A stretch of DNA of 24,749 bases from a virus (taxonomy: Duplodnaviria; Caudoviricetes). Of this stretch, positions 6,113-6,410 are shown piece after piece; the first letter of the stretch is position 1, and every line of letters starts with the position of its first letter. The notes under the pieces were generated by a model. It ran no database searches, was not told the DNA's origin, and worked only from the letters and a program-made list of their open reading frames with translations. Where the stretch lies: the IMG/VR virus record IMGVR_UViG_3300038797_000068, positions 1-24,749 of that record; one strand, written 5' to 3'. Position numbers and translations under genes: made by a program.

Positions 6113-6156
6113 GGCATTCCAAAAAGCCCGGCTTGCACCGGGCTTTTCAGTAATGC
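6113..6156 (-). terminator. Terminator-like hairpin at the 3' end of the tailocin leader
   Basis: Minus strand reads AAAAGCCCGG-TGCAAG-CCGGGCTTTTT; the flanking GCATT and AATGC can extend the stem. Confidence 0.7.
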
Positions 6157-6376
6157 GGTCCTTCGCGTTGACCTTTCGGCGCGACTGGCGCGGTACGGGT
6201 CCATTCAGATTGTTTTTCCGACCGCGGTCCCTGCCCGCCGGATAACTGCTTCTGGTGCTTTACGCTGCACACCCGGGTCAGTTGCCAACCCTCTGAACCG
6301 TTGAGGCCGGTTCATCGCTGCCTGTTGTGGTGGAACTGAAGAGCTTCGTTGCGAGCTGCTTTGTCGAGCGGCTTGA
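6113..6376 (-). ncRNA. Putative structured cis-acting leader RNA
   Basis: Lies between a clear promoter and the holin, with no credible ORF. It has a boxA-like GCTCTTCA, three back-to-back hairpins, a GAAA tetraloop hairpin and a terminator. Confidence 0.5.
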
Positions 6377-6381
6377 GACGA

Positions 6382-6410
6382 AGAATATGCATGGATGCAT
6401 ATACAGTCAA
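6382..6410 (-). promoter_or_regulatory. Sigma70 promoter of the tailocin operon
   Basis: Minus strand TTGACT (6410-6405), 17-nt spacer, TATTCT (6387-6382). Confidence 0.75.

Follow-up and report, generated by a model that had tools for sequence, protein, structure and literature searches.

The leader between prtR and the holin gene of an R-tailocin operon holds a real, previously undescribed and richly structured RNA family. Its core is predicted to fold as a tandem pair of H-type pseudoknots, the second of which carries an inserted hairpin, and on sequence comparison we lean slightly toward this RNA being a cis-acting antiterminator that works independently of N. This reading draws on the place of the RNA, which is that of nutL or putL, on the boxA ahead of it, on the failure to find a shared partner gene, on its occurrence in three kinds of element and on its loss together with the operon.

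The window, the whole stretch of DNA analyzed here, comprises 24,749 bases of a virus record. On its minus strand, where all window features described below lie, prophage late genes (about 24749-8111) are followed by prtR (7311-6541), a 496-nt interval, the holin gene (6044-5697; PF16085), which is the first gene of the R-tailocin operon, and then baseplate, fibre and sheath genes (Pfam tail families) up to the window end. The prtR gene encodes a PtbA/PrtR1-type cI-like repressor with an HTH domain and an S24 peptidase domain; it shares 91-99% identity with 80 genomic orthologues, of which 79 carry a Pseudomonas label. Behind it, a U-tailed hairpin (6522-6487) is likely the prtR terminator, judging from its sequence and from weak Trp/Leu-leader terminator-like matches. 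The cluster is of the PtbA/PrtR1 type without prtN, and the available text of PMC4684702 describes clusters of this type as lacking PrtN. As the original prediction had stated, no prtN, N or Q-like gene lies between prtR and the holin gene, where we found no gene with a Pfam match.

The interval contains a sigma70-type promoter where one had been proposed, with TTGACT starting at 6410, a spacer of 17 and TATTCT ending at 6382, overlapped by ATGCAT palindromes (the whole spanning 6436-6382). These palindromes, which are repeated and conserved in relatives, are likely PrtR operators, and PrtR1 is reported to bind the cluster promoter region in P. protegens CHA0 (PMC12066065). A LexA box in the promoter spacer was not supported, as the closing CAG is present in only 1 of the spacers tabulated. 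A promoter-like site lies no more than 190 nt upstream of the RNA at 254 of 284 loci, compared to 24 of 979 random positions. Next in the window come a 5' hairpin with an ACAA-type loop (6374-6354), which is a module of the tailocin lineage and weak alone (folding z 0.11), and then the octamer GCTCTTCA (6344-6337), whose description as boxA-like was confirmed. It is a T>C variant of GCTCTTTA, the form found in most relatives, which equals the first 8 letters of the gammaproteobacterial boxA consensus (PMC5725501). The consensus form stands ahead of the core at 146/162 tailocin loci and 27/81 phage-like loci, against a background of 11 occurrences in 940,528 other bases; about two thirds of the phage-like copies have no boxA, nor do those plasmid copies that were checked. 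BoxA is a real but optional module, of which the window carries a variant copy.

Other leaders carry further elements near boxA. Some divergent phage leaders (L436, L411 and L425) possess a short GAAAA-loop hairpin upstream of the core, which we take to resemble boxB and which precedes boxA in L436 and L425. A long-leader class (L097 and L242) has six ANGGA motifs inserted between promoter and boxA; the window has 0 such motifs between promoter and core, and hence no Rsm/Csr sponge hairpin array. A small ORF over the core (36 codons, ATG at 6315) was rejected because its reading frame is not conserved: the candidate leader ORF has an SD-like site in 4 of 257 cases, a stop at codon 4 in 62, and 51 non-synonymous versus 12 synonymous variants. 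No conserved reading frame with a ribosome-binding site, as expected of a leader-peptide attenuator, was found among the homologous leaders.

Since single-sequence folding was not above chance for either the leader (z -1.45) or the core (z -0.61), and since the Rfam search proposed with the original prediction returned no family matching the leader (covariance models, E up to 5), the structure was tested comparatively, and its support comes from covariation rather than from single-sequence folding. The covariation set comprised 48 non-redundant sequences, and 98.9% of cells pair across it; since sequences were collected by two motifs, these two cannot vary within the set. In stems P1 to P4, 17 of 34 pairs changed on both sides, compared to 7.7 ± 1.2 in shuffles (0 of 500) and 1-4 pairs in slid controls; as the homologues are related, these frequencies and those given below for the pseudoknots are not probabilities, and the changes fall in separate lineages. 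Covariation was seen in each of the four stems, so the comparison across Pseudomonas tailocin and prophage leaders that had been proposed as a check came out in favor of a conserved fold.

The first pseudoknot domain (6323-6294) combines P1 (6314-6308 with 6300-6294), which is the first of the hairpins originally listed and was found as placed, with PK1 (6323-6320 with 6307-6304). Five of the seven P1 pairs changed on both sides. PK1, which joins the 5' end of the RNA to the P1 loop, covaries in divergent homologues, averaging 3.83 pairs versus 3.26 with permuted partners (3/5000) and reaching 9 pairs in two homologues. The second domain (6291-6244) comprises P2 (6291-6288 with 6278-6275), P3 (6273-6254) and PK2 (6283-6279 with 6248-6244), in which the P2 loop pairs with the segment just ahead of P4, using several different letter sets. 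In PK2, each of the 19 distinct arm combinations allowed 3 pairs or more, with a mean of 3.95 compared to 1.60 for permuted arms (0/5000). For these pseudoknot tests, 61 parsed homologues of 64 rows were used, after dropping one spurious match and two sequences without the junction motif. A kissing interaction between the P1 and P2 loops, considered by eye, was dropped: the letters of the P2 loop vary, and it is the 5' arm that shows covariation with the P1 loop.

The second and third hairpins had been located correctly but drawn differently. The second (6291-6275) has a 4-bp stem with its loop engaged in the pseudoknot rather than a 7-bp stem, and the three extra pairs of an extended 7-bp P2 showed no double change. 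In the third (6273-6254), GGTGT and GCACC form the stem and leave a loop of 10 nt, not of 8 nt; both partners of its pair 69/84 had changed in 16 of the 48 sequences. Within stem P4 (6242-6217), which keeps two conserved G residues unpaired, double changes were seen at 6 of 9 pairs, and 99.8% of cells are paired. The two pseudoknots, P4 and a conserved CAGUA-type hairpin were absent from the original prediction. A compact double-pseudoknot fold in a mobile element could also belong to a ribozyme that cleaves itself and thereby processes the transcript at its 5' end. We consider this highly improbable, given that no Rfam match appeared even at permissive E-values, that the order of the core helices differs, as we take it, from that of HDV-like ribozymes, and that the promoter-proximal place and boxA fit transcription control better. 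Likewise, searches of 13 homologous loci with the Rfam riboswitch, ribozyme, sRNA and antitoxin RNA models gave no match at E values of up to 1.

Searches beyond the window gave the RNA a wide yet bounded distribution. With the core as query, blastn matched 13 phage records and 27 Pseudomonas plasmids, and an estimated 1000 IMG/VR stretches contain a two-motif pattern, whose motifs lie 63-66 nt apart in the 199 matches examined. A model built from the 48 sequences found the RNA in 90/151 genomes of the genus (88/149 once the unpublished genomes G103 and G155 are set aside). A second model, to which a divergent subtype was added, found it in 13/151 family-level genomes at E < 1e-8, in 1/34 genomes of the genus of a PrtN-type genome and in 0/150 other class-level genomes outside Pseudomonadaceae; at the order level only two weak matches appeared, one of which was inspected and judged to be chance. 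No match was found in E. coli genomes by blastn, and the dicF leader of E. coli Qin has no homology to the RNA. Judged by these matches, this is an RNA of Pseudomonadaceae mobile elements in the samples searched. We found no description of it in the literature, where large lists of candidate RNAs in subscription papers or supplements might contain it, and the available texts of PMC10305613, PMC4936722 and bioRxiv 10.64898/2026.09.22.753630 do not describe it.

In the phages PseuP_224, Medea1 and Aurca01, the RNA lies downstream of an annotated cI, opposite cro and the replication genes, and begins the leftward early (pL) operon, which is the position of nutL and putL; Orimi01 has the same layout with no cI annotated. 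Each of these four phages carries one copy of the RNA in its whole genome, and no second copy at pR was found in the phage genomes searched. Among seven plasmid records viewed, the RNA stands directly before virB1 in four, before a broken transfer operon in two and before an insertion sequence in one, and the virB operons that it precedes are those of P. syringae plasmids. On L421, a second plasmid copy is split between P2 and P3 by an insertion of ~1.2 kb (254-345 and 1501-1610).

In tailocin loci, the presence of the RNA goes with that of the operon. It is present in 75 of 80 prtR loci, counts that are not independent since all tailocin copies probably share one ancestor, and the five loci without it are exactly the five holin-only remnants (L003, L022, L030, L058 and L061). 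These remnants keep prtR and the promoter, have no lysin, and place the holin gene 100-189 nt before cinA (cinA-recA marks the locus end in short prtR loci). By contrast, nine tail-less loci with holin plus lysin (1-2 kb) keep the RNA, three of them among the four lowest scores and one with the highest. The RNA is thus tied to the operon in cis, and since such short loci keep it, operon length is not a simple explanation of its retention. One tailocin-type locus (L256:6472-6609) keeps only the first pseudoknot domain, directly before the holin gene.

These patterns also bear on whether the leader could be a stand-alone sRNA, running from the promoter to the downstream helix P6 and acting in trans as a sponge or regulator, as the original prediction had offered as an alternative. 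The tailocin copies are bounded by a promoter and a terminator-like hairpin, and RNA-library contigs from seven runs, representing several studies, cover the core. Such contigs indicate presence and give no ends, strand or level, for which reason their higher depth over the leader was given no weight, and some continue into the holin gene. Moreover, the phage and plasmid copies have no terminator, and all five remnants that retain prtR and its promoter have lost the RNA with the operon. The alternative is weakened by these findings, and we regard it as very unlikely.

The RNA also appears to be an alternative to a protein activator. Three PrtN-type loci gave no match to it (best E 0.23), which suggests that the RNA and the activator are complementary; SOS-type control of tailocins is common to the PrtR/PrtN pyocin system and to PtbA/PrtR1-type clusters, while PrtN is absent from the latter. 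In one PrtN-type pyocin locus, a 112-aa protein of unknown function (phrog_4300; L469:6831-7169) is encoded upstream of the holin gene, and by eye it looks like a Q-type regulator. With spurious frames that overlap the RNA set aside, a single gene family, that of the repressor, occurred in a majority of the 69 phage loci (51), and the next families reached 28 and 26. The first genes of 29 phage operons, chosen by a noisy picking rule, belong to many families, none of them annotated as N; PF11438 was absent from 5 records. As N proteins diverge fast, this search for N as a whole is a weak one. A nutL/putL position without an N-like partner is what the antitermination idea requires. Four of the 29 first genes encode a sigma/LuxR-like HTH protein (phrog_3282; L090:3158-3523, L129, L138 and L142), a possible accessory factor.

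Downstream of the core, P5 (6201-6170) is a covarying outer stem capped by a CGC-CAGUN-GCG hairpin, and the CAGUA-type hairpin recurs at 212 of 284 loci. A GCC-GAAA-GGT tetraloop had been claimed here; it is not conserved, its 3' letters change together with the upstream arm of the outer stem, and its GAAA forms an internal loop within P5. P6 (6156-6114) is a long helix that ends in a 5-U tract in tailocins and has no U tract in phage and plasmid copies, and P5 and P6 together fold with z -3.92. A U-tailed hairpin follows the core at 154/168 tailocin-class loci, compared to 1/75 other loci and 0/3 plasmid loci, where the tailocin class includes about six phage loci without such a hairpin and 35 short loci were left unclassified.

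The terminator proposed near 6130 before the holin gene stands as a U-tailed hairpin (6143-6121), but its helix has a homologue in phages, a hairpin that lacks the U-tract. In phages, the P6 homologue lies just ahead of the ribosome-binding site of the first gene. From its sequence, P6 may terminate transcription in tailocins, and its terminator form probably arose once. Nonetheless, the A-tract of P6 is as conserved as its U-tract (77/83 and 78/83), and two P6 variants keep pairing while the U-run shortens, so it may be as a helix, and not as a terminator, that selection has conserved the hairpin at 6130. The two U-tailed hairpins predicted near 640 and 580 are present before the sheath module (649-622 and 589-564, together spanning 649-564), and a terminator scan by a tool listed only 589-564 of the three. 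Further downstream in the phage operons (69 loci), 28 terminator-like sites were found in the sense direction, compared to 15 in antisense and 2.7 in shuffles, which would give an antiterminator signals to overcome. In L007, L012, L015, L038 and others, a second copy of P6 lies upstream of the holin gene where cargo genes sit between leader and holin.

The form of P6 in phages raises the alternative that the RNA acts after transcription, with the pseudoknots protecting the 5' end of a long mRNA and P6 serving as a processing site that sets translation of the first gene. The leader of lambda N carries an RNase III site, and a long helix without a U-tract just ahead of the first ribosome-binding site would suit such processing, as would the recurrence of P6 before holin genes behind inserted cargo and the retention of the RNA by short lysis-only loci. 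This account leaves the enrichment of boxA unexplained, as well as the need for so complex and conserved a fold, and we consider it unlikely.

We also weighed a conditional attenuator, in which the leader would sense a ligand or a host protein during DNA damage and so add a further checkpoint to that of PrtR. RNAs that bind ligands can look much like tandem H-type pseudoknots whose loops are conserved, and one lineage has its six ANGGA motifs in the leader. Published data from CHA0 may also be read this way. A reporter with the 516-bp prtR1-hol interval was induced by mitomycin C by about 3 logs, in the wild type as well as in mutants lacking the tail cluster or prtR1, while deletion of two prophages left induction unchanged, and the authors infer further regulation by another mechanism (PMC12066065). 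On the other hand, the induction that remains without prtR1 in CHA0 could act at the promoter, a terminator stands behind the core in only 1/75 phage copies and 0/3 plasmid copies, and no mutually exclusive pairing between core and P6 was seen. We find an attenuator quite unlikely. If the CHA0 interval carries the RNA, the same reporter results would mean that polymerase gets through the leader with no help from proteins of the deleted clusters; neither 'terminat' nor 'sRNA' appears in the main text of PMC12066065.

Known antitermination systems offer several points of comparison for a cis-acting, N-independent antiterminator. The HK022 put RNAs are ~70 nt long, form two stem-loops, occur as putL and putR at pL and pR, and bind the zinc-binding domain of the beta-prime subunit, suppressing termination in cis (PMC9378689, PMC8632103). 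Like put, the tailocin-leader RNA is structured, lies just behind a lambdoid pL promoter, has no N gene found with it and is proposed to act in cis. Unlike put, it is about 110-210 nt long with four stems and two pseudoknots, occurs as one copy per phage, has an optional boxA, and is found in Pseudomonadaceae, in tailocins and plasmids as well as in phages. Homology to put was rejected: a search of the HK022 early region with RNA model R2 gave a best E of 1.3, and local alignment scores stayed at shuffle level, whereas putL aligns with putR. By analogy, the RNA may work like HK022 put, and it is not a put member. The lambda nut and rRNA-type boxA/Nus systems share with it a boxA, present in most tailocin relatives at the nutL position. 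There is no conserved boxB after this boxA and no N, a large pseudoknotted RNA standing there instead, and the boxA is dispensable and lacks the ANA tail of the consensus. We rejected a nut site since neither boxB nor an N gene as the first pL gene was found.

The AlpR/AlpA/AlpB system of P. aeruginosa pairs a cI-like repressor cleaved upon DNA damage with antitermination past a terminator before a holin gene (PMC7969949). The tailocin locus resembles it in its cI-like repressor and in the terminator-like hairpin in front of the holin gene, and differs in its factor: in P. aeruginosa a protein, AlpA, is loaded onto DNA at an element of the promoter (PMC7969949), whereas the tailocin leader has an RNA and no gene there. 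The EAR RNA of Bacillus is a complex cis-acting RNA reported to antiterminate a long operon (PMC8632103); it belongs to a different phylum and context, and the leader matches no Rfam family of any kind.

Altogether, the leader likely goes back to a lambdoid phage and its pL leader. Upon DNA damage, cleavage of PrtR would free the promoter, and the RNA would fold during transcription and protect RNA polymerase against termination, with no need of an N protein from the phage. The core (6323-6217) would bind polymerase or a host Nus factor, a target that we infer, and NusB/NusE on boxA, where present, could assist. The modified polymerase would then pass the U-tailed helix at 6156-6114 and afterwards the internal hairpins near 640 and 580. 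Counting against this antiterminator are the single copy in each phage, the patchy occurrence of boxA together with its off-consensus form in the window, the retention of the RNA in short loci, the equal conservation of the A-tract in P6, the weakness of the N search and the sigma/LuxR-like first genes, whose products could be a factor.

More broadly, the RNA could represent a new family of RNA-based processive antiterminators built on tandem pseudoknots and unrelated to put, which would replace N in lambdoid Pseudomonas phages and would have been co-opted twice, by the tailocin operon and by plasmid transfer, with the tailocin helix having become a terminator and thereby a gate on cell suicide; on the comparisons made here, we hold this wider account to be an even call. 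To our knowledge, very few examples of RNA-only antitermination are known (put and EAR). If true, this account would explain the expression of early genes in N-less Pseudomonas phages and the switch-on of PrtN-less tailocins, and it would bear on tailocin production for narrow-spectrum biocontrol. The authors of the CHA0 study expressly allow for an extra regulatory layer (PMC12066065), and the covariation supplies ready-made disrupt-and-restore mutations.

The window holds further features outside the tailocin operon. The region at 24749-8111 is a separate prophage late region (capsid, Mu-like tail genes, cell-wall hydrolase and Rz) directly upstream of prtR, and prophage and tailocin are therefore adjacent. 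Between the tail fibre and lysis genes of this prophage lie two moron-like genes (11214-9154), one encoding an acyltransferase-3 protein with a possible role in O-antigen modification and the other a 307-aa ORF without a Pfam match.
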